Shown here: one piece after another, positions 24,199 through 39,397 of the stretch
Position numbering within the stretch: the stretch's first letter is position 1
How the letters are laid out: every line of letters starts with the position of its first letter
Assembly: GCA_017472605.1 (NCBI GenBank)
Contig: JAFUPV010000012.1
Location: 470-64,469, forward strand
DNA: 64,000 nucleotides
Direction: 5' to 3'
From: Lachnospiraceae bacterium
GTDB lineage: Bacteria; Bacillota; Clostridia; Lachnospirales; Lachnospiraceae
Notes under the pieces: generated by a model
The model's database searches: none
What the model saw: only the letters and a program-made list of their open reading frames with translations
What the model was told of the DNA's origin: nothing
Made by a program: the position numbers and the translations under genes

Positions 24199-25080
24199 TT
24201 ATTCCTTTTTCTCCTCCCGGTCATACAGATAAAGATATAAATCCTCCAATGTCGGCACGGCCTCTTTCCACTCCTCCCCGGGTTCCCGGTCACTCAGCAC
24301 CTTCAGGCGCACGCGGTCACCTTCCCGTGTCACCTGGCTGACCGGATACTTTTGGGAGATTTCCTCCCAGTTTTCATAGGGAACCCACACATAAAACATG
24401 TTTCCCTGCAGAGCGTCTGTGCAAAGCTTCTGCAGATTTCCGGACATGCAGATTTCCCCTTCCCGAAGGAATACCACCTCTTTTGCAATCATTTCTATGT
24501 CCGTCACAATGTGAGTTGCTATGATCACAATTTTGTTGAAAGCCACCTGAGAGATCAGATTGCGGATCCGCACCCGTTCTTTGGGATCCAGTCCCGCTGT
24601 CGGTTCGTCCAGAATCAGTACCGCCGGATCACCAAGCACTGCCTGTGCGATCAGCGCCCGCTGCCGCATTCCGCCGGAGAAACCGCCAAGGCGTTTCTGA
24701 CGGACATCCGCCAGATTTACCATCGGAAGGATCCGGTCAATCTGCCGCTTTGTCTCTGCTTTCGTCAGCCCCTTTAACGCTGCCATGTAATACAGAAACC
24801 GTTCCAGCGTCATGGCAGGGTAGAGCTGCTGCTGCTGCGGGACAAAGCCAATTTTTTCCCGGTAGCGCTCCGCAAGCGTGCGGATGTCTGTCCCGTTAAA
24901 GGAAACCGAGCCGCTGTCTGCGCTCAGATTGTCTGTCAGAATGTTCATCAGTGTCGATTTTCCGGCTCCGTTTGGGCCAAGAAGACCATAGACGCCGTCG
25001 GTAAATGTGTACTGAAACAATTTCAGTGCCTGCTTCTTTCCATAGGATTTTGATAATCCTTCGATACGCAACTCATTCAT
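24199..25080 (-). CDS. ABC transporter ATP-binding protein (export/multidrug type)
   Basis: GPNGAGKST, FSGGMRQR, LDEPTAGLD. Confidence 0.95.
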   Translation of the reverse strand: MNELRIEGLSKSYGKKQALKLFQYTFTDGVYGLLGPNGAGKSTLMNILTDNLSADSGSVSFNGTDIRTLAERYREKIGFVPQQQQLYPAMTLERFLYYMAALKGLTKAETKRQIDRILPMVNLADVRQKRLGGFSGGMRQRALIAQAVLGDPAVLILDEPTAGLDPKERVRIRNLISQVAFNKIVIIATHIVTDIEMIAKEVVFLREGEICMSGNLQKLCTDALQGNMFYVWVPYENWEEISQKYPVSQVTREGDRVRLKVLSDREPGEEWKEAVPTLEDLYLYLYDREEKKE

Positions 25081-25230
25081 ATACGTCCATCCCCTCTATT
25101 GATCGGTTGTCTCCGGTTTTAATCCTGACCGCAGCAACCCATTTTGATGTCTTTTCATTCCAATGCCTTCTCCTTTTGACGCCTTCGCATTCTGATATCT
25201 TCCCTTTATAATACTTCCGCAAATCTCACG

Positions 25231-25275
25231 CACCGATTCAGGCATTACCAACTCTGGCATTACCGATTCCGGCAT
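25231..25275. repeat. 3 x 15-bp tandem repeat at the permease stop codon
   Basis: caccgattcaggcat / taccaactctggcat / taccgattccggcat. Confidence 0.85.
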
Positions 25276-27086
25276 TACAGCAGCCATGTGAAACCTTTTG
25301 CCATCCCAAGCGCAGCCAGTTCGATCACAGCCAGCTGAATGATCTGCTGCCCAAGCAGATACATGCCAAGGCTGATCCAGCCGGGTACCCGGTCAAGAAT
25401 GGAAAGAGACGCCGCACTGGCTGACAGGCCGTTTAATCCGTATGTCTGAATCACCCGCATGTAAAACGGCACGAACAGGAACAGAAAAATCATCAGTCCG
25501 GCAGTCAGGATCCATACCCGTTTCTTTTTCCGAATCTGCCGCCAGCCTGCCTTTGTGGCACAGATCAGCCGCTTCTGTCCATATCGGTATTCCATGCCCC
25601 AGACTGTTCCCATGGATACCAGCAGAAACAGCACTGCGATACCCGCCATCAAACCATAGTATCCGGCATTTGTCTGCCAGATCAGTCGGCCATAGCCTTT
25701 TTCATAAAGAATCTGCCCATTGGGAAGTTCCTTCAGACGGTCCGCCCTGGACCGGATGATCTGGTACGCATTATAAATTTCAAAATTCTGGCTTCCCGCT
25801 GCCATCAAAAGCGCTTCTTCCTGCATCTTCGCCACAATCTGCTCCAGCCGCTCACCCTCCTCCTGCAGCCACACGTCCTTCTCCTCGTCCCATGTTCCCT
25901 GCAGGCGCTGGCAATACTGCCACTGATAGTATTCCTGCTCCGTCGAATAGAGAGGATACTTCTTCTCATAAATTTTCCCGGCAGCTGCCGCCAGCAGCAC
26001 CAGAAGAATCAGCCATCCTCCCATGACCAGCAGCTTATAACCTTCATGAAGCAGATGACTGGTATGCCGGATCCATCCAAACCTCAGAACACGTCCTGTC
26101 CTCTTTCCCGCTTCCATGACCATTCCATGCCCAAACAGATTCAGCGGAAGAAAAACTGCAAGAAGAATTCCGTGCCCGATGCCCATAACCCATATCATGT
26201 TTACCGGATGGCCGAAGCAGTTCAGATTGTGGAATTCCGTAAAAAAGTCCGCGCAGCCAAGGAAATACCAGAGATTTAAGTATTTCAGAGACACCAGCCA
26301 GGACTGCCGGTCAATCCCGTGATAACAGCAGAACCCGCTCAGAAGAACAATCAGCCAGATCCATGCCGCCCATCCCGTTTTCCTGCACCACAGGGTACAT
26401 CCGCAGCAGACAGCGGTTAACGTCACACATGCCGCGCTGCGAAACAGATACCAGACCAGCAGAAACGTCCCCATGCTCCATTTCTGTATGCTGGAAGGAA
26501 AGGCGCTCTGGAGCGTCCTTCCCATGCTCCCCAGGCCGACGGCGGCTTCCATGACAAGGACTCTCGCCGTGGTAAGAACGAGTATTCCGCCAACAGACAG
26601 AAGCAGCAGCGCAGCAAGCTTTGCCCGTCCAAGAAATCCGCGCCCTTTCTTCATCGTTCGGTTCAGCAGATACTGACCTTTTCTCCGCTCTTCCAGCATT
26701 CCCCAGTAACAGAGCATAACAATCCAGACAACAACCAGCACATCGGTTTCATCCGTATCCACGGCAAGCCGTATCCCATCCGCCGGTTCTTCTGAGATAA
26801 CCGTTCCTCTCATCCCATCATAGATTTCCCCGCTCTGTTTTGCATTCCTGTAAACAAAGCTGTTCCTGTCCGCAAAAATGGCAATGGACGTGGAATTCCT
26901 GCTGTGAGTCACCAGAGAATCAATATATTCTTCGTATTCCTGCTGCGTCAGAATTGTCGGTTCCTGAATCTCCCTCGCCTGCCCGAAAGAAATCCCGATT
27001 TCCAAAAGCAGCAGGCACAGAAACAACAGCACAAACCGCGTCTGACAGCAGATTCGTTCCATTTCATATCGTATCAGCCGAAGCAT
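25275..27086 (-). CDS. Multi-pass membrane protein, probable ABC exporter permease with internal duplication
   Basis: Two blocks of hydrophobic helices with EERRKG..LNRTMKKGR and EYRYG..LICATKAGW ABC-2-like motifs; upstream of the ATPase gene. Confidence 0.75.
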   Translation of the reverse strand: MLRLIRYEMERICCQTRFVLLFLCLLLLEIGISFGQAREIQEPTILTQQEYEEYIDSLVTHSRNSTSIAIFADRNSFVYRNAKQSGEIYDGMRGTVISEEPADGIRLAVDTDETDVLVVVWIVMLCYWGMLEERRKGQYLLNRTMKKGRGFLGRAKLAALLLLSVGGILVLTTARVLVMEAAVGLGSMGRTLQSAFPSSIQKWSMGTFLLVWYLFRSAACVTLTAVCCGCTLWCRKTGWAAWIWLIVLLSGFCCYHGIDRQSWLVSLKYLNLWYFLGCADFFTEFHNLNCFGHPVNMIWVMGIGHGILLAVFLPLNLFGHGMVMEAGKRTGRVLRFGWIRHTSHLLHEGYKLLVMGGWLILLVLLAAAAGKIYEKKYPLYSTEQEYYQWQYCQRLQGTWDEEKDVWLQEEGERLEQIVAKMQEEALLMAAGSQNFEIYNAYQIIRSRADRLKELPNGQILYEKGYGRLIWQTNAGYYGLMAGIAVLFLLVSMGTVWGMEYRYGQKRLICATKAGWRQIRKKKRVWILTAGLMIFLFLFVPFYMRVIQTYGLNGLSASAASLSILDRVPGWISLGMYLLGQQIIQLAVIELAALGMAKGFTWLL

Positions 27087-27146
27087 CGTCCCATCCTCCT
27101 GTTACTTATACAGTTCCATGTACCGCAGATCCATGGATCAGTCCAG

Positions 27147-28385
27147 TCACGGTTCCTCCTCTGCCCACACAGCATTGTGCCAGATCACTTTCTTATCAGC
27201 CAGTTCCTCTACTTCCAGATACATGGTATCTTTATATGGCTCCGGATCAATGGAAAAATAAATCTTTCCATCATAATATCCCTGATAGCTGTGCCTTTCT
27301 CCGGTTTTCTCATCCACGGGCAATTCCGCTTTCACCACAAGCGCTCCTGTATTCCGGTCAATCAGACGCAGCCAGTCTTCCTCATCCATCATCATCGCAT
27401 AATCATCAATCAGCTGAAACGCCCAGATGTCTTTGCAGTCGGAACTCTCCCATTCCCACAGAACCTTTTCTTCCCCATTTTTTGCCCAAATCAGCCGGTT
27501 TTCCCAATCCAGAAGGAGAACTCCAAGTTCCGGATCAAATCCGACCGCTCCACAGGTTTCATAGAATGACGTTTCCGTCTCATAAACAGGCTTTAAATCG
27601 TTTTCTTTCGGATCATAGCAGATATATTGACGTGAAACTGTCACACTCTGCTTCAATGCCTCTGTCTCTTCCGATGTCAGACCAGACCCGCTAAACAAGG
27701 ACGACAAATCCTGGCTGAACGCGTTTTTCTCGAAATAAACGCAGCCATCCAGAGCCGTCAAATAAGAATATCCTCCATGGAAGCTTCCTTTTGTTGTATC
27801 CAATATTTCTGTCTCCAGCGTATCCAGATTCAGAGCCGCCAAAATCCCATAGCTGTCCATTGTCATCACATATTCACCAGGTGTCGTTTCCTCATAATAA
27901 GTATCAACATAGTACAGCATGTTATCAATCAGGCACAGATCCGACATGTAATTTCCCGGTATGCAGTCTGTCAATTCTTTCTTTCCGCTTCCATCAACGG
28001 ATGCCTTCCAGACGGAATGAGCATTCATCCCTTCCCCCTGTCCGATCAGATACAGTGCCCCCTGATAAAAGAACGCTTTCTCGCCTCCAATCGGCAGCAG
28101 GGACGCGCTGCAGCTGCTGCCGGTATGGGCACAGCCTTCTGTCGCGCACAGAAAAACCTCCTGCCCCGTTGCGAAATCAATGTATTTCAGAAATGGGGAA
28201 CCATTTTGAATGTAATGCTTCAGAATTCCGTTATCGGTAATGCTTGCCCATCCGGTCGTCCCTGTTGTTCCAAAAAATGCTCTCGTTGTTTCCGCCACTT
28301 CCGTCTTTTTGGAACATGCGCTGATACTCAGCATTCCTGCCAGCAGGATTATCTGAAATAGAATTTTCTTTTTCTGTTTTCTCAT
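27147..28385 (-). CDS. Lipoprotein, probable beta-propeller, with a Cys/His cluster
   Basis: Start MRKQKKK; lipobox ISAC; LCATEGCAHTGSSCSA; repeated WKASVDG / LAALNLDT beta-blade-like segments. Confidence 0.7.
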   Translation of the reverse strand: MRKQKKKILFQIILLAGMLSISACSKKTEVAETTRAFFGTTGTTGWASITDNGILKHYIQNGSPFLKYIDFATGQEVFLCATEGCAHTGSSCSASLLPIGGEKAFFYQGALYLIGQGEGMNAHSVWKASVDGSGKKELTDCIPGNYMSDLCLIDNMLYYVDTYYEETTPGEYVMTMDSYGILAALNLDTLETEILDTTKGSFHGGYSYLTALDGCVYFEKNAFSQDLSSLFSGSGLTSEETEALKQSVTVSRQYICYDPKENDLKPVYETETSFYETCGAVGFDPELGVLLLDWENRLIWAKNGEEKVLWEWESSDCKDIWAFQLIDDYAMMMDEEDWLRLIDRNTGALVVKAELPVDEKTGERHSYQGYYDGKIYFSIDPEPYKDTMYLEVEELADKKVIWHNAVWAEEEP

Positions 28386-28430
28386 AGATATCACCCTCTT
28401 TTCCCTGATCTGTGAATCCCGGCAACAAAA

Positions 28431-28456
28431 CGGCTGCGGAATCATTTCCGCAGCCG
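28431..28456 (-). terminator. Hairpin terminator
   Basis: CGGCTGCGGAA/TTCCGCAGCCG stem flanked by AACAAAA and TTTTGTT. Confidence 0.7.
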
Positions 28457-28469
28457 CTCTTTTTGTTCA

Positions 28470-28512
28470 TACATCCGGGCGAACGTGCCTGTGACACGTC
28501 CGGTTGGATTTA
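28470..28512 (-). repeat. REP-like palindromic element, copy 2 (its TAA is the stop codon of the upstream gene)
   Basis: Minus strand TAAATCCAACCGGACGTGTCACAGGCACGTTCGCCCGGATGTA; 38/43 identical to 16500-16542. Confidence 0.8.
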
Positions 28513-30150
28513 TTCTGCCAGCTGACGGTTCATTTCCTCCAAAACAGCTTCCAGTCCTGCCTCCAGCAATTTCTCATGCAGCTCTTCCAGCAGCACTTCC
28601 GTTTCCGCGCCATACATCCCCCAGAATACAGGCGCATAGGAATCGTAAAGTTCCATGCAGGCATCATATTCCTTCTGTACCGCAGAAAGATCAATCGCGG
28701 ATTCGTCCACAAGCGGCATTGACACATATGCATTTGCCTGCAGCTGTGCCTCATAGCACGTTTCGTAAAACGGGATGGAAAGCTCCGCCAGCGCGCGGCA
28801 GGAGGTTCCTAAGCCAAGTCCCATGATGCCGCCTTTTCGGGTGTGATGCACAAGAAACGGTTCTTCTTTCGACGTATCATCGACGTAATAACTCCATCCC
28901 TCGATTCCGGAATATACCAGATTCCGAAATTCCATATCGGAATAAAGCAGATCCAGAAACTGCAGACATTCTTCCGGATACTGTGTTTCTGCGTCCACGC
29001 CAATTCCCATTTTTGCCAGGTTGATGCAGGTTTCGACGTTCAGGATGTTCGGCCATGCAAGGTATGCCGTGCCATATGGATCGGAATTCACGTATCCCCA
29101 TGTGAGACGGTATGCTTCATTGGGGACGAACACTGCCATACAATAAGCTGCCGTATCCGCGGTGGTCCGCAATTCCGGAGTTTTTATGATTCCTGTTTTT
29201 GACTGGCAGGAACTGATCAGAGTCTCCCCATAACCCAGCACGCCTGCTTCCCTGTATTGTCCCAGACACAGATACCAGTTTTTCAGCGTTTCATCTTCGA
29301 GAAAATCAACGACACGCAATGTCCCATCTTCCATTTGGCTGACAGCCCAATACGGTGCGAATTCCTGATAACCTGCAATCTCAAAAAATCCTTCATAAAA
29401 CGAATTTCCCACTTCCATACGCACCGGAATCACACCATTCTGTTTCAGCTGCTCATTTTCAGCCAGAATGGAAAGATCACTGACCGTATTTGTCCACGCA
29501 ATCGGGTAAACATCGCTCAGTTCTTTGTTGTAGTAGATTACATAGGGATTTGAAATCTCAAAACATGCAGGAATTGCATAAATCCCGCCGTCCGCACCTT
29601 TTAATGCTTCTATGCTGACTTCTGCCACCCAGTTATCTTCTGACCGCGTGTAATATGCGTTCAGGGCATCCAGCAGATGTCTTCCCGTTTCCGACTCCAG
29701 ATAGGGGGACAAATTCAGCAGATATCCATTTTCCAGACAATAGGCCTGCAGTTCGGAACTGGTTGTAAAAAAGATGTCCGCAGCCATTCCTTCTTCTTTT
29801 CTGGTTTTATATATCTCAACCGGTGTCAGGAAATCGCCGCTGAAGGATTCCTGATAACCCAGCTCAATTGCAAATTGATATCCGTTTTCTTTCAGATACT
29901 GATTGATCGCATTGATATGCTCCGGATAGCTCACAATGGTGTCATCGATTATTGTAAGAACAATGCCCTCCGGGGCTTTTTCTTCCGCATCGACCTCCGC
30001 CGTACATTCAAACTCCATGTACACAATGTTAGGACTTGCTTCGCCAAAGGTGATTTCTCCTTCTTCTGCGGTTTCGGCAACCGCATTTATACAATTCAAA
30101 AGCAATAGTGCAGACAGAAAAAAGCCAGTGTGTTCCCAGAATCCTTTCAT
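28510..30150 (-). CDS. Secreted solute-binding-protein-like protein
   Basis: Signal peptide; ADIFF, LLNLSPYLESE, DGGIYAIP, YPEECLQFLDLLY, LLEAGLEAVLEEMNRQL resemble family-1 SBPs. Confidence 0.65.
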   Translation of the reverse strand: MKGFWEHTGFFLSALLLLNCINAVAETAEEGEITFGEASPNIVYMEFECTAEVDAEEKAPEGIVLTIIDDTIVSYPEHINAINQYLKENGYQFAIELGYQESFSGDFLTPVEIYKTRKEEGMAADIFFTTSSELQAYCLENGYLLNLSPYLESETGRHLLDALNAYYTRSEDNWVAEVSIEALKGADGGIYAIPACFEISNPYVIYYNKELSDVYPIAWTNTVSDLSILAENEQLKQNGVIPVRMEVGNSFYEGFFEIAGYQEFAPYWAVSQMEDGTLRVVDFLEDETLKNWYLCLGQYREAGVLGYGETLISSCQSKTGIIKTPELRTTADTAAYCMAVFVPNEAYRLTWGYVNSDPYGTAYLAWPNILNVETCINLAKMGIGVDAETQYPEECLQFLDLLYSDMEFRNLVYSGIEGWSYYVDDTSKEEPFLVHHTRKGGIMGLGLGTSCRALAELSIPFYETCYEAQLQANAYVSMPLVDESAIDLSAVQKEYDACMELYDSYAPVFWGMYGAETEVLLEELHEKLLEAGLEAVLEEMNRQLAE

Positions 30151-30302
30151 TCGCTCGCCTCCTTTTTCTCAGCATATCATTTCCAACAGGTAAAAGCAAG
30201 AAACTTTTTATTTCTGCAAAAGTCCCCTGCTTACCCATTGTTTATATCGCTCATCCGACATATTTAATTATTCTGAGATTCCGTTTTCTGTTAGAACTGA
30301 TC

Positions 30303-30692
30303 TTAACGATAACGAATCAACGTAAATACCTTCTGATTTCCGCTTGTAGCATCTGTATGTGTATTTGCCACTGAGTATACAAATCCAGTAGCAGAATAAA
30401 CAACACTTGCACTATTACTTCCACCATTACTGCCTCCACCTGCGCCAGAACCATTCTCATCATATGAGTTTGAAATAGTGGAAACAACAGAACCACTTTT
30501 TGCTGTCACTGCTGTTACAACAGGATATACGCCAGCATTTGAATTAATTGAACATGTCGCAGTAATTCCATAACTTGTCGTTGTATATGACGATCCATAT
30601 ACTGTTCCACTGTCTACTACTGCCGCATTTGCAGAAACAGCTACTCCCAATAGTGTCGCCATGGCAACCATTGCAATTTTTATTCGTTTTAT
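30303..30692 (-). CDS. Small secreted Gly/Ser-rich protein ending RYR (paralog 1); probable ATA start at 30692, otherwise ATG at 30671
   Basis: RBS GAAGGGAG 7 nt before ATA AAA CGA ATA AAA; signal peptide ending ANA; homologous to 35075-35470. Confidence 0.7.
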   Translation of the reverse strand: MKRIKIAMVAMATLLGVAVSANAAVVDSGTVYGSSYTTTSYGITATCSINSNAGVYPVVTAVTAKSGSVVSTISNSYDENGSGAGGGSNGGSNSASVVYSATGFVYSVANTHTDATSGNQKVFTLIRYR

Positions 30693-30708
30693 AATATTTC
30701 TCCCTTCA

Positions 30709-31146
30709 TTACCATGAAAAATCTACTACTCCCGTTGACCAATTCGGTGTCCAGTATCCACTAACCACATAGTCTACTAAAGTACTTCCTGTATTTCCCC
30801 GTAAAGCAACATTTCCTTCATGCATCTCACTATAGTACACTAGCTGACACAGATATGGAACTTCTTCTCCTGGTACGATATAATTATATGTTATCTGAGT
30901 CCCATCGGAAGCTACAACCAGCATATTTGTCGGACGGTTTAAAACTGATTGATATGTAATCTTTGCCTGAGCGCAAGAGTACTCAGGATATTTATAAACA
31001 TAGGTACTCATTCCGGCCTGATCTACACTTTTCAACTGAAATCCATAGCCATTCTTTTCATAAATTACATCAGCTGCAAAAACTGTACATGTACCCACTA
31101 AGCATAATACAATCAGTATCATGGATATATACTTTTTCATTAGCAA
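30709..31146 (-). CDS. Small secreted hypothetical protein
   Basis: MKKYISMILIVLCL...VFA signal peptide; C-terminal LRGNTG...VSGYWTPN; RBS GGAGG. Confidence 0.7.
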   Translation of the reverse strand: MLMKKYISMILIVLCLVGTCTVFAADVIYEKNGYGFQLKSVDQAGMSTYVYKYPEYSCAQAKITYQSVLNRPTNMLVVASDGTQITYNYIVPGEEVPYLCQLVYYSEMHEGNVALRGNTGSTLVDYVVSGYWTPNWSTGVVDFSW

Positions 31147-31258
31147 TTACCTCCGTTCGTTTTTATTTATATACCTGCCCAACGATTTTTGACACGCTGT
31201 TATCCCCCCCTTTCTGTGTCAGGCCCGCTTCAACAGGAAACATTTCGAAACCAGTCTT

Positions 31259-31903
31259 TTATTCAAGCATCTCTACAATCTTTCCCTTATCCATTCTGTA
31301 CACAACATCACACAGCAAATCAATATCTTCTTTCGTATGACTGGCAATTATTATCAGTTTCCCTTCTTCTTTCAGACGCAGCAGCAACTGACGGATTTCT
31401 TCAACCCCTTCATTATCCAGTCCGTTCATCGGTTCATCCAGTAATAGAATCTGCGGGTCTTCCATGATCGCCTGTGCGATTCCAAGTCTCTGACGCATTC
31501 CAAGAGAATACGCGCCCACCCTCTTTTTACTGAATGGATCCAGTCCAACAAGCCGGATTGTTTCACGTATCTTCTGATCTGAAATCTTCCCATTAATCAT
31601 CCCAAGCATTTTCAGATTCCGGAATCCCGAATACTCCGGTAAAAAGCCAGGGTTCTCAATGATCAAGCCAACATTCTCCGGTACATCCTGCCCCTCTTTT
31701 AGCACTTTTCCATTGATTGCAATTTCACCTGATGTTGGACGGACAAATCCACAGATATGCTTCATTAATAACGATTTCCCACAACCGTTTCTTCCTACCA
31801 GACCATAAATTTTTCCAGCTTCCATCACTATGTTAATGTCCTTTAATACAATCGCTTCTCCAAACTGCTTATTCAGATTTCTGATTTCAATTTTTCCCGA
31901 CAT
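31259..31903 (-). CDS. ABC transporter ATP-binding protein
   Basis: GRNGCGKS, YSLGMRQR, LDEPMNGLD. Confidence 0.95.
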   Translation of the reverse strand: MSGKIEIRNLNKQFGEAIVLKDINIVMEAGKIYGLVGRNGCGKSLLMKHICGFVRPTSGEIAINGKVLKEGQDVPENVGLIIENPGFLPEYSGFRNLKMLGMINGKISDQKIRETIRLVGLDPFSKKRVGAYSLGMRQRLGIAQAIMEDPQILLLDEPMNGLDNEGVEEIRQLLLRLKEEGKLIIIASHTKEDIDLLCDVVYRMDKGKIVEMLE

Positions 31904-31915
31904 GGACCGTCCCCC

Positions 31916-32794
31916 CTACTGTTCAGAAAATAAATCCATACGCTTCACTTTTCGCCCAATAATTCCTCCCAGAATCAGCATCATGGCAGTACCAGTTATC
32001 ACTACATATGAGCCAGTTAATAAACCGCGTCCGGACAAATACTGCAGATTTTCCATACTGGTCCAGCTGACAGGTGAAAAAATCATATACCAGTTCGTCT
32101 TTTCTGATGTCAGATTATACAGAACCGGATCAATTAAAACCAGAAAAACTGCAGCTGCAATACCAATCCATCTTTTTTTTGAGTACAGATTAATCGCATA
32201 GATCAGAAATCCCAAGATAATCAATATCATCCATGCACTGCCATAGCTGTACAGCACAGCAATCCAATAATTGACCTGATTAACAACATGAACCGGACAC
32301 TGTATTCCGTTCAGGGCTTCAAAGCGATTAATACTGCCTCCTGCAATTGCCCCAATCAGACTTCCCCATCCATGGGTTAAAGAAATTGTTGGTGCAAGAT
32401 AAATACACGTAACAGTCGTAGTCCACAATAAATAAATCAAAGAAGCAAGAATAATGTAGAGACATTCCCCTTTATACCAGTTTTTTCTTCCTGACCGAAT
32501 TACCAGATATGGTTTTTGTTTATCAATAAACGGTGCATTGGAAAGCAGTGCGATTCCGCCAAAAAACAGGATTACTTTGGGCAGTCCATTGCTGTTCATG
32601 GCATCCCCCATCAGTAATGGAAAGATTGTAATTGGCGTAGTAAGTTCATTCTCCAAAGCAAATTTGGATACCGGTAATGTATATCTTCCAAGAACTACCG
32701 CAATCACTGTCAAAATTGTCCAGATTCGGTAATTTCTCTTCCACTCATTCAATCCTTCCGTTGCTACCATCCAGATTTTTTTACAGATTCCCAT
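31916..32794 (-). CDS. Probable ABC exporter permease
   Basis: About 6 transmembrane segments; YLVIRSGRKNW; adjacent to the ATPase gene. Confidence 0.7.
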   Translation of the reverse strand: MGICKKIWMVATEGLNEWKRNYRIWTILTVIAVVLGRYTLPVSKFALENELTTPITIFPLLMGDAMNSNGLPKVILFFGGIALLSNAPFIDKQKPYLVIRSGRKNWYKGECLYIILASLIYLLWTTTVTCIYLAPTISLTHGWGSLIGAIAGGSINRFEALNGIQCPVHVVNQVNYWIAVLYSYGSAWMILIILGFLIYAINLYSKKRWIGIAAAVFLVLIDPVLYNLTSEKTNWYMIFSPVSWTSMENLQYLSGRGLLTGSYVVITGTAMMLILGGIIGRKVKRMDLFSEQ

Positions 32795-33590
32795 TCTTCT
32801 TTCTCCTGTTCATCGCCCACAGACATCCGGCTGCAGTTACCATTTGCGCTGCAATCAATATTCCATTACTATATATGAAATTGGGCCAGAAATCATTTGT
32901 CCCCAATACAATCCAGCAGGAGCTGATCGACCAGAAATCCAGAGACATCGGTAAGATACCGGTAAATGCATATAGGATATAGAACAATATATATGGAATT
33001 GCAATTGCTACATAGCGGCTTGGTGCAAAAATTGAAACAAAGATACCAATATTACTGAGAAACACAATTGCCAAACCAAATTGAAATCCAGTCAGCACAC
33101 CATAGAGCCATGGAAACGGTCCCTTTTCAATGACAGAATAAAAACCAGTCCAGCTCCCATTCCACCCTGCTCCCCCTCTTAGCGGGAAATATGGTGAAAT
33201 AATTGCCAAAAACAGCAGAAATCCGCTAATCGTAACGAAAAGAATCGCGATTGCGTTTGCTATCAGTTTTGAAACTACATAGGATTCAACAGATACTCCA
33301 CGTCCAAGAATCTGCTTTTGAAACGAATACTGTAAATCATCGCTGATACCAAACGTATAGATACCAGACAACATAACTACCATAACTGCTTTAAACCGAT
33401 CAAAATACAGCACCTCCATCAATTTTGATGGTCCGCTTACATAGGGATCAAGATTATATTTCATGCATGCAAGAATACTATCATGAATGCATCCACACAT
33501 CAGAATGGGAACCAGCACCAGAATCAACCAAATCCTTTTTGCCGCGAAACAGCGGTAAAGATCCATCTTAATCATTCCCCAACATTTCAA
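32781..33590 (-). CDS. Probable ABC exporter permease
   Basis: About 6 transmembrane segments; ILGRGVSVESYVVSK; overlaps the next permease gene. Confidence 0.7.
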   Translation of the reverse strand: MKCWGMIKMDLYRCFAAKRIWLILVLVPILMCGCIHDSILACMKYNLDPYVSGPSKLMEVLYFDRFKAVMVVMLSGIYTFGISDDLQYSFQKQILGRGVSVESYVVSKLIANAIAILFVTISGFLLFLAIISPYFPLRGGAGWNGSWTGFYSVIEKGPFPWLYGVLTGFQFGLAIVFLSNIGIFVSIFAPSRYVAIAIPYILFYILYAFTGILPMSLDFWSISSCWIVLGTNDFWPNFIYSNGILIAAQMVTAAGCLWAMNRRKKNGNL

Positions 33591-33629
33591 CCGCGCTCTC
33601 CTCCCTATCTGTTCATTTCCCTTTATCGA

Positions 33630-34733
33630 TCAGTACATACGAAACGTATTGATATCTCCGCTTATCGCATCCAAAAGCATATATCCATCTGCTTCCGCCT
33701 CTCCCCGCAGCCGGTTCGGAAACTCACCGGCATACAGATCAATTGTCGACTCCTTATCTGTAAAACTGAGTTTCCAACAGGGAAGTAATTGTGATGTACC
33801 TTCGATCATATTCTGCTGCTTCGTATTTTCTGTATAAACAAGTTCTATCTCTGTGATTTTCATTTGATCCGGTACCAGCTGATAGATCTCAAATGCCAGT
33901 TCTTTCCACTTTTCTTCCGCTTCTTCACTGGATATCAAGTCCACCATTTCCTCTGAAATAACCTGATATCTCACTGGCGCTTCCAACGAAATCAGTCCTC
34001 TTGCTGGTGAATAAATTATCGAAAGAATTCCATCTTCGATCAAAGAACGATATGCCAGACCTTCAATTTCTTCATATTCATAGAGAAATAGAAATGCAAA
34101 ATCTTCCTGATCCCATTCTCCCGCCGCACTGTCCGTCATATCTTTTCCAGGAGCAGGTGTTCCAAAATACATCCAGGATGCAGATCCAAATTCATCATCA
34201 ATCAAATACGTTCTTACATTTCCGTACGGAAATTCCAATTCCTCCGCAATCTGATCACATACTTCTCTACATTCCTCATATGATTCATATTCTTTCGCAC
34301 TCTCCGGCATCGCCATTTCCAGGAAATCAGGCTGATATTTGCGATACACATTAAGAGGAGTCATTGCCATATGATATGGGTCTGCCAATTCTGTGTTAAT
34401 AACAGAAAACGAACTGCAATCACCATATACCGACAATTTTAAATCTCCGCTGCTATACCAGGCAGACATTTCGTCCATGTCTTCTGCATATTCTTCACCA
34501 AGGAACAGTTGAACAATCTGTTCCAGATCATAACAGGAAAACGACACGTTTAGTAAACGATACTCCGTCAATTGTGTCGTATCAATCTCTTCTTCTGTTT
34601 CATCCACTTCCGATTCTTTTTCGTAGTCGATCACATCCCCGGTCTCTTCAGACACATTTATTTCGTTTGAATATGTATTTTTTGCGTTAACTGCTGCAAC
34701 AATCATCATAAGAAAATATACGATCTTCCTCAT
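33630..34733 (-). CDS. Acidic secreted hypothetical protein
   Basis: Start MRKIVYF with RBS GGAGG; N-terminal hydrophobic segment; C-terminal IELVY...LLPCWKL...LDAISG. Confidence 0.65.
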   Translation of the reverse strand: MRKIVYFLMMIVAAVNAKNTYSNEINVSEETGDVIDYEKESEVDETEEEIDTTQLTEYRLLNVSFSCYDLEQIVQLFLGEEYAEDMDEMSAWYSSGDLKLSVYGDCSSFSVINTELADPYHMAMTPLNVYRKYQPDFLEMAMPESAKEYESYEECREVCDQIAEELEFPYGNVRTYLIDDEFGSASWMYFGTPAPGKDMTDSAAGEWDQEDFAFLFLYEYEEIEGLAYRSLIEDGILSIIYSPARGLISLEAPVRYQVISEEMVDLISSEEAEEKWKELAFEIYQLVPDQMKITEIELVYTENTKQQNMIEGTSQLLPCWKLSFTDKESTIDLYAGEFPNRLRGEAEADGYMLLDAISGDINTFRMY

Positions 34734-34749
34734 TCTGTTCCTCCGATTC

Positions 34750-35023
34750 TTATTCATTATCAAGTTGCCTGTTCATCTCTTCCAATACACGGTTCAGTCC
34801 TGCTCCCAGCAGCTTTTCATGCAATTCATTCAATTTACTTTCCGTCTCTTCGGCATAAATTCCCCAAAACACCGGTGAATATTCCTCATACTATATATGG
34901 GGATGCGTTTTGCTCCCTTGGATCATTCGTTTCTTCCATAAACTCTCCTGCATCTGCAGTACTCCCACTAATACTCCATACACATCCGCCCAGTAATCCC
35001 AACAATAAAAGTCGCTTTCCCAT
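34750..35023 (-). pseudogene. Internally deleted paralog of the 28510-30150 SBP-like gene
   Basis: RBS plus MGKRLLL...NASPYIV* (compare EASPNIV) joined out of frame to YEEYSPVFWGIYAEETESKLNELHEKLLGAGLNRVLEEMNRQLDNE* (compare YDSYAPVFWGMYGAETEVLLEELHEKLLEAGLEAVLEEMNRQLAE). Confidence 0.85.
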
Positions 35024-35074
35024 AGTTTCTATCCTTTTCCTTCCCTATCGTCAAGAATATTTCTCTTCTTTCAC

Positions 35075-35470
35075 CTAACGATACCTGGCTAATGTATAGG
35101 ATTTCTGCAAATTATTTGTTGCATTGCTGTGTACATTTTTCACCATATATGCACTAGTGCTGGGAACGTAAGATATATTGATACTATTATTTCCTCCACC
35201 ACTGTTTCCACCAATTCCTGATCCAGCTTCATTATAGGCTGTTGATACAGCATATACCACGCAACCACTCTTACTGGTAGTTACTGTTATCGGTGCATTT
35301 AATGGATATGTCAATCCATCACCAAACGCACAATATGCGGTAATACCATATCCGGTCGTTGTATATTGCAATCCATAAAATGTTCCACTATCAACGGTTT
35401 CTGCACTTACCGAACACAGATTTCCAAGTAAAAGTATTATTGCCAGTAATAATGTCATTTTCTTCTTCAT
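35075..35470 (-). CDS. Small secreted Gly/Ser-rich protein ending RYR (paralog 2)
   Basis: MKKKMTLLL...VSA signal peptide; about 45% identical by eye to 30303-30692. Confidence 0.8.
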   Translation of the reverse strand: MKKKMTLLLAIILLLGNLCSVSAETVDSGTFYGLQYTTTGYGITAYCAFGDGLTYPLNAPITVTTSKSGCVVYAVSTAYNEAGSGIGGNSGGGNNSINISYVPSTSAYMVKNVHSNATNNLQKSYTLARYR

Positions 35471-35587
35471 AAAACCTTCTTTCTATCTCAGCAAGTATCC
35501 AGTTAGTCTCACCTTTTCCTATTTCTCCCGCCTAACAATCACATCACTTTCCTAAAATAGTATCCGTACTTAAATCACTCTATCGTT

Positions 35588-35655
35588 ATTATATTGCAAA
35601 TATTCTTTTTTTGTCAATAATTCTTTTTGACTTTTTCACAATCTTCTGATATAGT
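35588..35655. promoter_or_regulatory. Back-to-back sigma-A promoters
   Basis: Minus strand TTGACA(35617-35612)-18bp-TATAAT(35593-35588); plus strand TTGACT(35627-35632)-17bp-TATAGT(35650-35655). Confidence 0.7.
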
Positions 35656-35711
35656 AATATCGTATTACATGTATAATTTTTTTACAAAATCAATGAAAGG
35701 ACTGTTATTCC

Positions 35712-36107
35712 ATGGCAATCCACCTACAACAAAAAGAACTGGACATTCTATCCCTTCTGGTTCATGCATCAAAACCAATGGCAATTTCTGAAATTGTTGC
35801 CACCGATCCTTCTTACACAACGAACATCGTTCAGCCAATCATCCGAAAGTTCTGTGAGATGAATCTGGTCGAGGTTGCAGATATCGTCTACAACAAAAAG
35901 GCGCTTACGCGAACCTTCCGTCCAACTGCCTCAGCAAATGCGATTCTTGAAGAACTCTTTCTGAAAGAATATCGTTCCTTCCGTCAGCTCTTTTCTGACA
36001 ATACACTGCTGGCTTCCATGGTTCAATCTGAACTGGACTCCACACAGGATGCAGCAGAAATTCAAAGATTAGAACAGATTTTGGAAACGTTCAAGAAAAA
36101 TCTATAA
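35712..36107 (+). CDS. BlaI/MecI/CopY family repressor
   Basis: KELDILSLLV...PMAISEI...TTNIVQPIIRK winged helix; 131 aa; directly upstream of an M56 peptidase gene. Confidence 0.8.
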   Translation: MAIHLQQKELDILSLLVHASKPMAISEIVATDPSYTTNIVQPIIRKFCEMNLVEVADIVYNKKALTRTFRPTASANAILEELFLKEYRSFRQLFSDNTLLASMVQSELDSTQDAAEIQRLEQILETFKKNL

Positions 36108-36128
36108 GTAAGAACGGAGGAATGTTCA

Positions 36129-37289
36129 TTGAGTTACTCGTTTGAAACAGTCGTAATGGCTGTTTTGTTTTCCAATGTTCTGTTTTTCATTACATATTTA
36201 TTATTTCGGAGTAAAAAGATGCTGCTTCTTGTCGGCTACCGCACCCTGGCAGTTACAACAATTCTTTCCCTGATTCGTTTGCTGTTCCCGATAGAGCTTC
36301 CTTTTACCACAACCATTCTGTATTCCTGCCCGCCTTCAAAAGCGGTTGTTTTTCTTCAGCACAGATGGAACCTGTTTTCCTTCCTTCACGTTTCCATCTT
36401 CGATTTACTCCTCATTGTCTGGGTGATTGGAATCATTCGCGGTTCTTCTGTTTATTTCATGCAATACAGAAAAATCAGCGCATTCATTTTATTACATGGT
36501 AAAGAAGGAGCAAATCAGGAACGATATTCGGCAATCCTGAATTCTGTATGTACTTCTCTGGCTGCGAAAAACAGATTCCAGGTAATGGAAATTGCCGGAC
36601 TTTCAACCCCGATGATTTTTTCCGTTTTCAAACCAACCATTTTGCTGCCTGCGAATCATACCTACACGGATCAGGAACTTTTTTTCATTTTTCAACATGA
36701 AATTTCCCATTCCGTTCACGGTGACCTGCTCGTCAAATTCTTTTTACAGATATTAACCATTGTTTACTGGTGGAATCCACTGTCTGCTTCCATAAAAGCA
36801 CATATGAACCGGATTCTTGAATTGAATATTGACGCAGTTGTTACACACAACGACCGGCAGGCAATTGCAGACTACCTTTCCTGCTTATTGGCGATCAAAA
36901 AGCAGGCTGTCAATTCCAAACCTACTCCATTTCTTTCTTCAATTGGACTCTCCATCGCAGAAATAGAAGGAAGTGAGCTGGAGACCCGGTTTCAGGTACT
37001 GGCGAATCAAACTCCACAGCGGAAATCCGTTTCCTCTGGTATTATCGGTGTCAGCATCCTGTTTTTTCTTATCTCCTATCTGTTCATATGGGAACCCTCT
37101 CAGCCGCCCTCATTGTTTGAGCCGGAATCTTCCTATTTCCAAATGACAGAAGAAAATTCCTATGTAATTCAAAATCCCAACGGAACCTATGACTTTTACT
37201 GGAATGGGCAACTGATTGAAACCGTCGATTCCTTACAGTATTATGATGAATCCATACCAATTTATCAAAGCAAGGAGGATGTCCCATGA
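36129..37289 (+). CDS. M56 family (BlaR1-like) membrane metallopeptidase without a penicillin-binding domain
   Basis: TTG start with RBS GGAGG; RLLFPIELP, KPTILLP, HEISH (HExxH) then HGDLLVK, VYWWNPL; short C-terminal extracellular tail. Confidence 0.88.
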   Translation: MSYSFETVVMAVLFSNVLFFITYLLFRSKKMLLLVGYRTLAVTTILSLIRLLFPIELPFTTTILYSCPPSKAVVFLQHRWNLFSFLHVSIFDLLLIVWVIGIIRGSSVYFMQYRKISAFILLHGKEGANQERYSAILNSVCTSLAAKNRFQVMEIAGLSTPMIFSVFKPTILLPANHTYTDQELFFIFQHEISHSVHGDLLVKFFLQILTIVYWWNPLSASIKAHMNRILELNIDAVVTHNDRQAIADYLSCLLAIKKQAVNSKPTPFLSSIGLSIAEIEGSELETRFQVLANQTPQRKSVSSGIIGVSILFFLISYLFIWEPSQPPSLFEPESSYFQMTEENSYVIQNPNGTYDFYWNGQLIETVDSLQYYDESIPIYQSKEDVP

Positions 37290-37555
37290 CACGCAAACAA
37301 CTTTTTCGCCTCACACTCTCTGCACTCTGCTGCAGCATGTTTCTTTCCCTTCCGGCAACTGCCTCACCCATTTCCGACTATCAGGAAAGCGCTTATGCTA
37401 CTGCATGCACTGCCGTTGATACCTCCGCAGTTCCATATGCCGATGGACTCCAATGGTATTACAAAATTGAAAATGGAAAAATGTATAAGCGATTATATAA
37501 CACGTCCACTGGAAATTGGGTTGGGGACTGGATTTATGTAACGGATGTCGAGTAG
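37286..37555 (+). CDS. Small secreted protein (89 aa) coupled to the M56 gene
   Basis: ATGA overlap with the M56 stop; RBS AAGGAGG; signal peptide ending ATA; C-terminal WYYKIENGKMYKRLYNTSTGNWVGDW. Confidence 0.8.
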   Translation: MTRKQLFRLTLSALCCSMFLSLPATASPISDYQESAYATACTAVDTSAVPYADGLQWYYKIENGKMYKRLYNTSTGNWVGDWIYVTDVE

Positions 37556-37657
37556 CAGACTGCATGGAACAGAAACACAAGAACAGATCCTTTATCATAT
37601 CAGCAGAGCGAAACAATATGTGAAAATGGACACGAATCAAACGGAAATGACCACAAT

Positions 37658-37704
37658 AAAAGAGAGACTTGTATCCGTGTGAACGGAATTGCAAGTCTCT
37701 CTTT
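37658..37704. terminator. Probable bidirectional terminator between convergent genes
   Basis: AAAGAGAGACTTG ... CAAGTCTCTCTTT inverted repeat. Confidence 0.65.
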
Positions 37705-37822
37705 CCTATCCTTCTGATGTATTCTTTCTATTTTACAGCAGTCCATGCTGCAGGCAGTCAAACGGACGATTCGCCCATCTGACTGCTGTGCAGACTCCAA
37801 GAAAACAAATAACTTTACACGG

Positions 37823-38362
37823 CTACCTGGATTCCCTGTTTACCTCAATCTTTATGTTCTCTGCAAGGAATTCGATTTGTGATTGGGCAGTTTGCTCGAC
37901 TTCAATCTGAAATACAACGAAAATCGGCTTTTCATAGTCATTCATACCTACCCACAAACAAGAATCCGATGTTACCTGTGCCGGATATATATAATCCTTT
38001 CCATATTGGTATGTTCCATCCGACTGCTGGATATAAGTCTGAACATTGAAAGCTGTCAGAAGATAGTCTGTTGGATACTTTGCCGTAATCCTACAGGTTT
38101 CATCCGGCATTACAATCATTGATGCCGTAACACACAACATACTCTTCGATTGAAACTGATAGCAAATAATCGGATTCTCATTCATTTCTTTAATTCCGTT
38201 CTTATATGAATTGCTAACTTCTTCACTCAATTGTACGGTACACCCTGACAGAAATACAAATAGCACAAATAGCCATCGTTTCACAGACTTCAATTCAATA
38301 AATACCACCCTTTCATGCCTTCGAAATATATCTACAAAATTATATTTTCCGGAATTCCACAA
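37823..38362 (-). CDS. Hypothetical lipoprotein (true start possibly GTG at 38284)
   Basis: VKRWLFVLFVFLSGC lipobox. Confidence 0.6.
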   Translation of the reverse strand: MWNSGKYNFVDIFRRHERVVFIELKSVKRWLFVLFVFLSGCTVQLSEEVSNSYKNGIKEMNENPIICYQFQSKSMLCVTASMIVMPDETCRITAKYPTDYLLTAFNVQTYIQQSDGTYQYGKDYIYPAQVTSDSCLWVGMNDYEKPIFVVFQIEVEQTAQSQIEFLAENIKIEVNRESR

Positions 38363-38421
38363 AGATTCATGGCCTTACTCTAAATAAATAGCAAATATCA
38401 TTCCGAATCACCCATATTACA

Positions 38422-39258
38422 TTATGAAAATCCAGGAGCTTGCAATTTTAAACCAATAAATGTACCATTTGCCCAAGTGCCAGCCGAATCATATTCACCA
38501 TCCACAATTGTAACCTGTCCCGCTCCTCCTAATGTGCCGTCTCCTAATTCAACTCCAAACGATACTTCTAGTTCTATTAGTTGATGATAATATGTGGCTA
38601 TTATTGGTACACTTATCTCGACACCTTCTGTGAATGCACCTGCTTTCGGAATTAACTGTATCATCGAGGAAACGGAGATATTTTTGTACAAATTTTTAGA
38701 GATTGGTGCTGTATAACCAACTCCTCCCTCGGTTACATACGCTGGATATTCATTATTGTAATATTCTATATACTCCGTTGTTCCATCATATAATTGCGCA
38801 AGCCCTGTAGCACTTACATAAAAATAATTAAGCGAAAACAAATCACTATCCCAATTAACTGTTACAGCATCAGTCAATCTATTAATTGGCATTTCTATCC
38901 AACGTCCATATGGTTCTACATCCAGTGCAGTCATATTACCATCTGCGTCTTCCTCGCAGAAAACTCCTATCTCCCAAAAAAACATACTATCATCAATCGT
39001 TCCTGTCGGTATTGATCTCTGATTTGCATTCTGTTTCACACGAACATTGTCAACAAACTTTACATTTTTCCCAACTAACTGTTCATACACTTGCTCGATT
39101 GTCTTCGTATCGCGAATCTCTAAATATTCATCTGTACATCCAATTGATTTTAAATATTGCACCTTTTCCTCATAAGAAACCGACTCTTCGGCAAAACAGT
39201 TATTTGCACATCCAATGAGCAGACATAACATCAAAATTCTCAAAATACATTTTTTCAT
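38422..39258 (-). CDS. Secreted hypothetical protein
   Basis: MKKCILRIL...CFA signal peptide; RBS and consensus promoter upstream. Confidence 0.7.
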   Translation of the reverse strand: MKKCILRILMLCLLIGCANNCFAEESVSYEEKVQYLKSIGCTDEYLEIRDTKTIEQVYEQLVGKNVKFVDNVRVKQNANQRSIPTGTIDDSMFFWEIGVFCEEDADGNMTALDVEPYGRWIEMPINRLTDAVTVNWDSDLFSLNYFYVSATGLAQLYDGTTEYIEYYNNEYPAYVTEGGVGYTAPISKNLYKNISVSSMIQLIPKAGAFTEGVEISVPIIATYYHQLIELEVSFGVELGDGTLGGAGQVTIVDGEYDSAGTWANGTFIGLKLQAPGFS

Positions 39259-39368
39259 ATAACACTCATTCCTTTCTTTATTCTATTGCTTATCCTGTAT
39301 TCAATCCCTATAATTCTATCTCACCATATCATTACACTTCCTTTCTTACGAATTCATCGCTCAACGAT

Positions 39369-39397
39369 ATTATAATCATAATGTCTTATCTTGTCAA
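39369..39397 (-). promoter_or_regulatory. Consensus sigma-A promoter
   Basis: TTGACA-17bp-TATAAT on the minus strand upstream of 39258. Confidence 0.8.

Follow-up and report, generated by a model that had tools for sequence, protein, structure and literature searches.

The locus of the bacteriocin lactococcin 972 encodes LclA as the pre-bacteriocin, LclB as an immunity protein with seven transmembrane (TM) segments, and a transporter of the ATP-binding cassette (ABC) type, and the membrane protein and the ABC transporter have been proposed to serve self-protection (PMC11161930, PMC8538875). The present work concerns a gene cluster at 24.2–39.3 kb of the window, i.e., of the whole 64,000-nucleotide stretch of DNA that was analysed (Lachnospiraceae bacterium, GenBank assembly GCA_017472605.1, contig JAFUPV010000012.1), in which genes for two small secreted proteins, referred to as RYR-A and RYR-B, stand at the head of genes for two ABC-2 exporters. 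The cluster consists of eleven genes and one gene remnant on the minus strand, followed by two further units. From 35.5 down to 24.2 kb, the minus-strand order is, for module B, RYR-B, a remnant of a gene for a solute-binding protein (SBP)-like lipoprotein, an acidic extracellular protein, permeases of 269 and 292 amino acids (aa) and an ATPase of 214 aa, and then, after an orphan secreted protein of 143 aa, for module A, RYR-A, an intact SBP-like protein of 546 aa, a lipoprotein, a 603-aa permease and an ATPase of 293 aa. A plus-strand unit divergent from RYR-B encodes a 131-aa protein, an M56 protease of 386 aa and a secreted protein of 89 aa, and two lipoprotein genes (278 and about 179 aa), with their own promoter, converge on this unit. 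The region is best explained as two ABC-2 exporter operons of the self-protection or resistance kind, in tandem on the minus strand, with an RYR/SBP-like cassette heading each. A small secreted protein followed by lipoproteins and ABC-2 exporters is, by analogy, how loci for bacteriocin self-immunity and for inducible antimicrobial resistance are arranged, and the reading favoured here, with a probability of about 0.35, is that a bacteriocin-like protein is secreted, against which the cell protects itself by surface binding and by the exporters, with M56 in control.

The original prediction had compared the region with loci of the lactococcin-972 style, and the general layout bears this out: a gene for a small Sec-secreted, unmodified, hydrophilic protein is followed on the same strand by genes for a large multi-pass membrane protein and an ABC ATPase, with no modification enzymes and with a sporadic distribution including single-gene losses. 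However, every family-specific marker fails, as the RYR proteins have no match to the lactococcin_972 family (Pfam Lactococcin_972/TIGR01653) at E ≤ 0.1, the 603-aa permease has none to the bacteriocin-associated membrane protein TIGR01654 (about 7 TM), and the two window ATPases score 111 and 106 bits with the cognate ATPase model TIGR03608, whose cut-off is 254.85 and which is far from being their top match. Mature Lcn972 has 66 aa, versus about 108 aa for RYR here, and, unlike the lactococcin 972 locus, the cluster contains the SBP-like and Cx4CxHx4C lipoproteins, two exporters and the M56 unit. It had also been stated that the system could not be matched to a characterised one, which agrees with the outcome of the Pfam, NCBIfam, PADLOC, PHROGs, Rfam and PDB comparisons, where nothing decisive was found. 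The tests for this and the other families discussed below failed at curated thresholds, except for the M56 domain, which reached its own, and for the LanFEG-type ATPase and permeases, where the signals were mixed. The cluster may work like those families but is not a member of them; it represents a variant not described so far, assembled from parts of known kinds and headed by a secreted protein that is nearly an orphan. The cassette that carries this reading comprises the following features:

35075–35470, minus strand: RYR-B, intact small secreted protein of 131 aa, signal peptide ending SVSA/E
34750–35023, minus strand: remnant of a second SBP-like gene, a 45-aa N-terminal open reading frame (ORF) and a 40-aa C-terminal ORF in a different frame
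30303–30692, minus strand: RYR-A, small secreted protein gene, mature product about 106 aa, ancestral start codon now ATA
28510–30150, minus strand: SBP-like lipoprotein of module A, DUF3502 type, 546 aa, PF12010 at 4.5e-9, above the cut-off

RYR-A and RYR-B are paralogues with 48% identity (E 7e-20). In tblastn, RYR-A aligns to RYR-B from codon 1, starting at 30692, with ATA at the ATG position; a GGGAG Shine-Dalgarno sequence precedes the ATT/ATA, and the first in-frame ATG, at 30671, gives a signal peptide devoid of the charged N-region. The sole variant seen in the RYR genes, a C for T at 30662 in one contig of run X3, turns the second Met codon in the RYR-A frame into GTG. In module B, it is the SBP-like gene that was lost, as had been noticed from the outset: the N-terminal ORF of the remnant keeps the signal peptide, the C-terminal piece matches the last part of the 546-aa protein at 72% identity across 43 aa (tblastn), and the gene calls of the remnant bear a weak DUF3502 flag. 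The further claim of two related modules stands for the RYR paralogues and the SBP-like pair, but not for the rest, as the ATPases of modules A and B are 32% identical, an ordinary value among ABC ATPases, and the extracellular proteins and permeases have no similarity by BLASTP and HHalign (in the latter, the extracellular protein of module B was compared with the lipoprotein family of module A, and the permeases of module B with the permease family of module A). Therefore, the duplicated unit is the two-gene cassette of RYR and SBP-like genes, placed before two different exporters. With the start of RYR-A lost and the SBP-like gene of module B deleted, one intact RYR gene (B) and one intact SBP-like gene (A) are left; the decay after duplication is reciprocal, which suggests that both modules work as one unit.

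The mature form of RYR-B has 108 aa, 11.3 kDa and an isoelectric point (pI) of 8.0, and both mature RYR proteins fall within about 106–108 aa, 10.6–11.3 kDa and pI 6.8–8.0, with Thr, Gly, Ser, Tyr and Asn prominent in the composition and with a Gly/Ser/Asn loop. The family is nearly orphan: the profile search of 1.84 billion representative proteins yielded no credible homologue beyond the two window copies, its other matches being two giant repeat surface-type proteins, one with Fn3 domains, which are probably compositional. The word-indexed search with RYR-B returned the self-match only, and no matches were obtained in Pfam and NCBIfam at E ≤ 0.1, in PADLOC, in PHROGs or in the PDB profile search.

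A weak but colinear RYR homologue is, however, the secreted protein of 149 aa (pI 5.2) at the metagenomic locus L019, which shares with RYR the motifs Y..Y..T..G.T..C, SG and NGSG..GG together with an invariant His. This locus is one of three (L019–L021) that keep the module A order, with accessory proteins 26–39% identical to those of the window and with non-glycan neighbours of the operon. In L019 the order is the 149-aa secreted protein, SBP-like protein (554 aa), two lipoproteins (413 and 398 aa), permease (607 aa) and ATPase (286 aa); L021 has the same order, with the small gene cut at the contig end; and L020 encodes the SBP-like protein (554 aa), a lipoprotein (396 aa), an LRR protein, the permease (614 aa) and the ATPase, and all that is left of the small gene upstream of the SBP-like gene is a 40-aa C-terminal piece. 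In the window and in all three related lineages, the exporter-linked SBP-like gene thus comes directly after a small secreted homologue or what remains of one. The small gene is the fastest-diverging member of the operon, barely detectable across lineages, whereas in the same comparison the SBP-like proteins are 35–39% identical, the permeases 36% and the ATPases 59–68%, and it decays alone, as seen from the remnant in L020 and the ATA start of RYR-A. By these alignments, the small gene is the fastest-evolving and most often degraded member of the five-part operon, as would be anticipated for the gene of a toxin whose immunity genes are retained next to it.

The SBP-like protein resembles the DUF3502 SBPs of the LplA/YesO type by the DUF3502 C-terminal domain, a weak SBP fold signal (SBP_bac_8 at 0.011, below the cut-off) and the lipoprotein-type N-terminus. 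Unlike them, it is encoded with an exporter, and its operon contains no importer permeases of the BPD_transp_1 kind, which occur only in the left glycan locus. In the 5.8-billion-cluster collection it has three close relatives only (P0034–P0036, 35–39% identity), while the next relative, of 25% identity, is an ordinary importer SBP accompanied by BPD_transp_1 permeases, and a scan of the JGI metagenomes with the SBP-like alignment gave no relative; the exporter-associated SBP-like proteins form a small separate clade. The recurring gene order, together with the importer type of the nearest outside SBP, indicates that the five-part operon is real, rare and unnamed. Its exporter part in the window is formed by:

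27147–28385, minus strand: lipoprotein of module A, 412 aa when counted from MRKQKKK (ORF up to 28445, 432 aa), lipobox ISAC
25275–27086, minus strand: module A fused two-half permease, 603 aa, about 9–10 hydrophobic segments by hydropathy
24199–25080, minus strand: module A ABC ATPase, DrrA/GldA-like, 293 aa, PF00005 at 2.6e-32

The Cx4CxHx4C motif near the N-terminus of the lipoprotein (C80, C85, H87 and C92) is invariant in alignment A4 of 12 family members, the family being represented in the window, L006, L007, L011, L013–L016 and L018–L020, and, as part of an extracellular protein, the motif may bind metal or form disulfides; the lipoprotein itself is possibly beta-propeller-like, with weak DUF5050/BamB-type matches. 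The 603-aa permease has no match in Pfam or NCBIfam and is 36% identical to the permeases of 607–614 aa in L019–L021 and 23–28% to relatives of 661–795 aa, one relative having a weak ABC2_membrane_4 match. The ATPase, with a C-terminal extension of about 70 aa, is under every curated cut-off of NCBIfam and is 59–68% identical to the ATPases of L019–L021 and 46–54% to those of a wider family with a three-gene core. In this family the 661–795-aa permeases have a lipoprotein and an ATPase encoded upstream in every locus with upstream sequence, and the lipoprotein-ATPase-permease core, found in metagenome contigs and in 9 of 10 Lachnospiraceae/Acetatifactor loci of GTDB (L009 being cut at the permease gene), is broader in Lachnospiraceae than the five-gene operon. 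Two-component systems adjoin the core in the five related loci whose upstream genes were read, being of the OmpR type in L006 and L007 and of the LytTR/AgrC type in L105, L017 and L018. In L105 (2–8432) and L018 (5295–11851), the core lies behind a LytTR regulator and a 584-aa AgrC-like kinase, and in L105 it also adjoins a tyrosine-recombinase fragment, which suggests that the core is mobile. The occurrence downstream of OmpR- and LytTR-type systems, and the ABC-2/DrrA class of the ATPase, are shared with the Bce-type and other two-component-linked exporters. Among these, LnrJK-LnrLMN of B. subtilis is a two-component-linked ABC-2 resistance system. In contrast to the Bce type, the module A core has the conserved Cx4CxHx4C lipoprotein, no FtsX-type permease match was found by Pfam in the cluster or among the permease relatives, and the window operon does not have a two-component system of its own; the nearby histidine-kinase/AraC-type pair resembles the pair of the L102 importer locus and belongs beside the left glycan locus.

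The exporter of module B is built differently:

33630–34733, minus strand: acidic extracellular protein, 367 aa from the MRKIVYF start (ORF up to 34763, 377 aa), no family match
32781–33590, minus strand: ABC-2 permease, 269 aa, PF12679 ABC2_membrane_2 at 27.7 bits against a cut-off of 27.2
31916–32794, minus strand: permease, 292 aa, weak WxPxxD_TM match and no ABC-2 match
31259–31903, minus strand: ABC ATPase, 214 aa, PF00005 at 6.1e-33

This set resembles LanI with LanFEG (e.g., NisI/NisFEG) in having a surface lipoprotein-type partner, one ATPase and two permeases of about 250–290 aa, and the best NCBIfam match of the ATPase is the lantibiotic-protection model TIGR03740, though at 187.9 bits versus a cut-off of 309.75; the nearest curated families of both window ATPases include the lantibiotic-protection, PSM-export and DrrA types, all below threshold. 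In contrast to LanI/LanFEG, none of the accessory proteins is related to LanI, an 11-kDa protein is presumed as the ligand, and no lanthipeptide precursor gene and no gene for a LanB/C/M-type or other modification enzyme was found at 24.2–39.3 kb. An ATPase 67% identical to that of module B is encoded in many human-gut contigs, where (L023–L041) the order is that of a 272-aa permease, a 381-aa lipoprotein, a 295-aa permease and a 213-aa ATPase, with identities to the window of 27% (to the 269-aa permease), 20–25% (to the 367-aa protein) and 31% (to the 292-aa permease). These 381-aa relatives match YycI weakly (3e-6, below the cut-off), and upstream of the operon in contigs of this type a HTH-TPR regulator and a 519-aa secreted protein are encoded, with no RYR gene. 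A search of plasmids by tblastn with the module B extracellular protein gave no match.

In another group of relatives (L049–L051), a canonical BlaI (PF03965, 3e-21) is followed by an M56 protein of 728 aa, a pair of permeases, an ATPase with 58% identity to that of the window, and a relaxase; from its gene content, this looks like a mobile, BlaI/M56-controlled ABC-2 exporter of human-gut metagenomes. This arrangement provides independent support for M56-type control of the B-type exporter class. In the stretch of L049 (3773–10327), the 728-aa M56 protein has a large ectodomain with weak DUF6034 and FTP matches, and HHalign of the family of the module B extracellular protein against this ectodomain revealed no similarity. 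The two-component and BlaI-M56 neighbours of the exporter relatives are contexts typical of antimicrobial sensing and bacteriocin control. The components were expected to co-occur elsewhere, and they do so in parts, with the module A order in three loci, the module B core in many gut contigs and BlaI-M56 by the B-type exporter in L049–L051, but the full assembly was found in this one organism only.

The corresponding control elements of the window lie between and beyond the divergent transcription units:

35588–35617, minus strand: sigma-70 promoter, perfect TTGACA-18-TATAAT (12/12), 117 nt upstream of RYR-B
35627–35655, plus strand: promoter-like site TTGACT-17-TATAGT with TG extension (10/12), for the regulator/M56 unit
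35654–35668, no strand assigned: inverted repeat GTAATAtcgTATTAC, candidate operator by its place, overlapping the -10 box of the plus-strand promoter
35712–36107, plus strand: putative repressor of 131 aa, "BlaI-like" by position only, ending 21 bp upstream of the M56 gene
36129–37289, plus strand: M56 (BlaR1-type) membrane metalloprotease, 386 aa, HEISH motif, PF05569 at 83.6 bits against a cut-off of 31
37286–37555, plus strand: small secreted protein of 89 aa, ATGA overlap with the M56 stop and Shine-Dalgarno sequence AAGGAGGA, translationally coupled
37660–37703, no strand assigned: hairpin between the convergent units, 12-bp stem AAGAGAGACTTG...CAAGTCTCTCTT, a likely bidirectional terminator not listed by the simple terminator scan
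39369–39397, minus strand: second perfect sigma-70 promoter, TTGACA-17-TATAAT (12/12), upstream of the 278-aa lipoprotein gene

Both exporter arrays are transcribed away from the unit of the regulator, M56 and small-protein genes, as was predicted, with the promoters back to back at 35588–35655. Over the region, 30 promoter-like sites were found versus 34 expected, i.e., with no enrichment, so that only exact match and position count. The genes of the 11-kb minus-strand array are closely spaced behind a single strong promoter, and no convincing terminator was predicted along it. The M56 protein has four N-terminal TM segments and an extracellular tail of about 65 aa after the last of them by hydropathy, and the generic BlaR1 model is matched over the protease part only (65 bits versus a cut-off of 400). 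As in BlaI-BlaR1 and MecI-MecR1, an HExxH M56 zinc protease of the membrane comes right after a small protein that is mainly helical and similar in size to BlaI, the unit diverges from a regulated-looking operon, and a palindrome lies on a -10 box, the GTAATAtcgTATTAC repeat being followed by the palindrome TACATGTA. Unlike BlaR1 (585 aa), the M56 protein of 386 aa has no penicillin-binding sensor domain and is co-translated with the 89-aa secreted protein. The latter, which has no family match in Pfam, NCBIfam, PADLOC or PHROGs, could be a co-sensor beside M56; the C-terminal half of this protein, which is rich in aromatic residues (WYYKIENGKMY...GNWVGDWIYV), resembles cell-wall-binding repeats to some degree. 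The comparison of the two perfect promoters for a common operator revealed only chance-level shared 9-mers. The reading TTGACA..ATAAGACAT is common to the spacer of the promoter at 39375–39397 and the promoter region of the L019 operon (about 1120–1150), which may be chance in AT-rich DNA.

In the mechanism proposed here, RYR would be a secreted antagonistic, bacteriocin-like effector, which the SBP-like lipoprotein, derived from the SBPs of sugar importers, would bind at the producer surface, and the accessory lipoproteins and ABC-2 exporters would keep RYR off its envelope target, by analogy with LanI and LanFEG for lantibiotics or with the role proposed for the membrane protein and ABC transporter of the lactococcin 972 locus. 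An extracellular cue would lead to the M56-dependent removal of the repressor, and expression would start from the perfect RYR-B promoter, back to back with the promoter of the repressor/M56/small-protein unit; with one good RYR gene and one good SBP-like gene after the reciprocal decay, the two modules would now act as one unit. The gene content, the RYR paralogy, the SBP-like remnant, the promoters, the composition and the synteny at other loci are established by the sequence analysis, whereas the toxicity, binding, protection, regulatory link and single-unit idea are all what we infer from the gene content and arrangement. The bacteriocin-like reading is favoured because the RYR and SBP-like genes are strictly linked and were duplicated as a pair, because the small gene evolves fastest and is lost independently while the rest is kept, and because a resistance operon whose first gene encodes a small protein secreted in abundance is not known to us. 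The near-orphan status of the RYR family, the affinities of the ATPases, the regulatory contexts of the exporter relatives, the perfect promoter before RYR-B with no convincing terminator predicted along the array, and the foreign composition of the block also count in its favour. Its specific extension, by which RYR would be a new family of Sec-secreted unmodified toxins of gut Lachnospiraceae, with immunity via a repurposed DUF3502 SBP as a receptor or decoy at the surface, the Cx4CxHx4C lipoprotein and a fused ABC-2 exporter in an undescribed architecture, is doubtful, at rather less than even odds.

Several points weigh against this interpretation. Most members of both exporter families are without an RYR or SBP-like gene, so that the exporters do not need them; BlaI/M56 genes are not beside the three related module A loci (L019–L021); and the window sequence is known only from five DNA metagenome runs. 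The mature RYR proteins are hydrophilic and neutral to acidic (pI 5.2–8.0), unlike most membrane-active peptides, their AF2 model from a two-sequence alignment is an all-beta fold of pLDDT 39 and therefore unusable, and no likeness of the cluster proteins to a known bacteriocin, toxin or immunity protein was found in Pfam, NCBIfam and PDB. The "blaI" label given to the 131-aa protein by the original prediction found no support in either sequence or structure: there is no PF03965 (Penicillinase_R) match even at E ≤ 10, compared with 3e-21 for the BlaI of L049 as a control, no PDB sequence match, and no Foldseek match against PDB for its single-sequence AF2 model (pLDDT 62). A colinear identity of 23% to the L049 BlaI is not significant, and the protein is a putative repressor by its position and size. 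In sequence or profile searches of PDB, no significant match was obtained for the families of the repressor, SBP-like protein, lipoprotein, RYR and permease, and in the literature on DUF5050, DUF3502 and BlaR1 with ABC transporters and bacteriocins nothing relevant was found.

The exporters may instead be inducible ones for envelope stress or antimicrobial resistance, both ABC-2 systems expelling, or shielding the cell from, an external agent that acts on the membrane or wall, with the RYR and SBP-like proteins as accessory parts for capture or sensing, rather than toxins, and with M56 sensing the agent. The occurrence of the module A three-gene core with two-component systems, in Lachnospiraceae and without RYR or SBP-like genes, the B-type exporter directly behind BlaI-M56 on an element with a relaxase, the affinities of the ATPases to resistance and immunity classes, the non-cationic nature of RYR and the RYR gene being dispensable in L020 and weakened in module A all speak for it, whereas a ligand or effector would agree better with how tightly RYR and the SBP-like gene are paired and how fast RYR diverges, and no known resistance family of NCBIfam was reached at its threshold. 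This explanation, possible though not likely, comes close behind the bacteriocin-like one, as the exporter families are mostly without RYR and RYR is not cationic. Alternatively, RYR could be a beta-rich surface or amyloid-like subunit, chaperoned or anchored by the SBP-like protein and the lipoproteins, with the ABC proteins as mechanotransducers or for partner export. Such a surface or matrix assembly would suit the Thr/Ser/Gly/Tyr/Asn composition with the Gly/Ser/Asn-rich loop, the giant surface-type proteins with Fn3-like domains whose repeats were the other matches of the RYR profile, and the additional orphan lipoproteins and secreted proteins in the AT-rich block; it is improbable, however, since those giant-protein matches are probably compositional, no sortase signal, cell-wall anchor or known assembly factor was found by Pfam and NCBIfam, and the permeases have no FtsX/MacB-type match, ABC-2 being the only detectable affinity.

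That the cluster is not one system, but a variable AT-rich spot in which genes for secreted proteins and transporters without relation to each other have gathered, is more improbable again: the full 15-kb arrangement occurs in one organism only, the two exporters have separate evolutionary histories, and BlaI/M56 is not conserved by the module A relatives, but the five-gene synteny of module A recurs at three other loci, the RYR/SBP-like cassette was duplicated as a pair, and the genes follow each other at close same-strand spacing behind one strong promoter. The least probable is an accessory function linked to glycans, in which the SBP-like protein would still bind carbohydrate and serve the flanking loci. 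The protein belongs to the DUF3502 class of sugar importers, and the cluster has a GH88/importer locus on one side and a GH78 rhamnosidase on the other; however, the operon is without importer permeases or carbohydrate-active enzymes, the neighbours in L019–L021 are non-glycan, and the exporter-associated SBP-like clade has diverged to 25% identity from the nearest importer SBP. If the bacteriocin-like reading is true and the RYR proteins are antagonistic effectors, they would represent a new protein family among the poorly charted interbacterial weapons of gut Clostridia, and a solute-binding protein would have been recruited to exporter-based protection. Regardless of that, a conserved unnamed operon type is defined (small secreted protein, SBP-like protein, Cx4CxHx4C lipoprotein, fused ABC-2 permease and ATPase), together with a concrete link between M56/BlaR1-type sensors without a penicillin-binding domain and ABC-2 exporters, and both points are directly testable.

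Part of the cluster differs in composition from its surroundings. On the left it is flanked by a glycan locus with GH88, an LplABC-type importer and the histidine-kinase/AraC-type regulator pair, and on the right by the GH78 rhamnosidase gene, and from outside to within about 30.2–39.55 kb the GC content falls from about 0.50–0.56 to 0.37–0.42, with a sharp right edge. The GC content at third codon positions (GC3) is 0.57–0.68 in the flanking genes and 0.20–0.44 from RYR-A (0.195) through the 278-aa lipoprotein gene; in module A it is 0.61 for the ATPase and permease and 0.49–0.51 for the lipoprotein and SBP-like genes. The proposed AT-rich accessory region was thus recovered, and all genes named for it are present, but with module A below RYR-A (24.2–30.15 kb) being host-like to intermediate in GC3, the compositionally foreign block measures about 9.4 kb from RYR-A onwards, and not 15 kb. 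No carbohydrate-active, modification or mobility (integrase) gene was detected at 24.2–39.3 kb by Pfam and NCBIfam, in line with the first inspection, and the tRNA scan and the Rfam scan of the region were empty; PADLOC and PHROGs, with ten proteins each, gave zero matches, i.e., no defence or phage family among the components. The window sequence is present in five gut-metagenome runs (DNA) from two studies, with the AT-rich block in all five, including the low-depth run X5, in which one contig spans the right junction; the other contigs with this sequence are 99.9–100% identical to the window.

Several more orphan lipoproteins and secreted proteins share the AT-rich block:

30709–31140, minus strand: orphan secreted protein of 143 aa between the modules, signal peptide MKKYISMILIVLCLVGTCTVFA
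37823–38362, minus strand: probable lipoprotein of about 179 aa, lipobox LSGC, start codon uncertain
38422–39258, minus strand: lipoprotein of 278 aa, lipobox LIGC

None of these three has a family match in Pfam, NCBIfam, PADLOC or PHROGs. The 143-aa orphan gene lies 16 bp upstream of the RYR-A frame, and its 90% cluster has 4 members, the examined contigs of which all belong to the same organism. The genes of the 278-aa and about 179-aa lipoproteins form a unit of their own (37823–39397) behind the second exact promoter.

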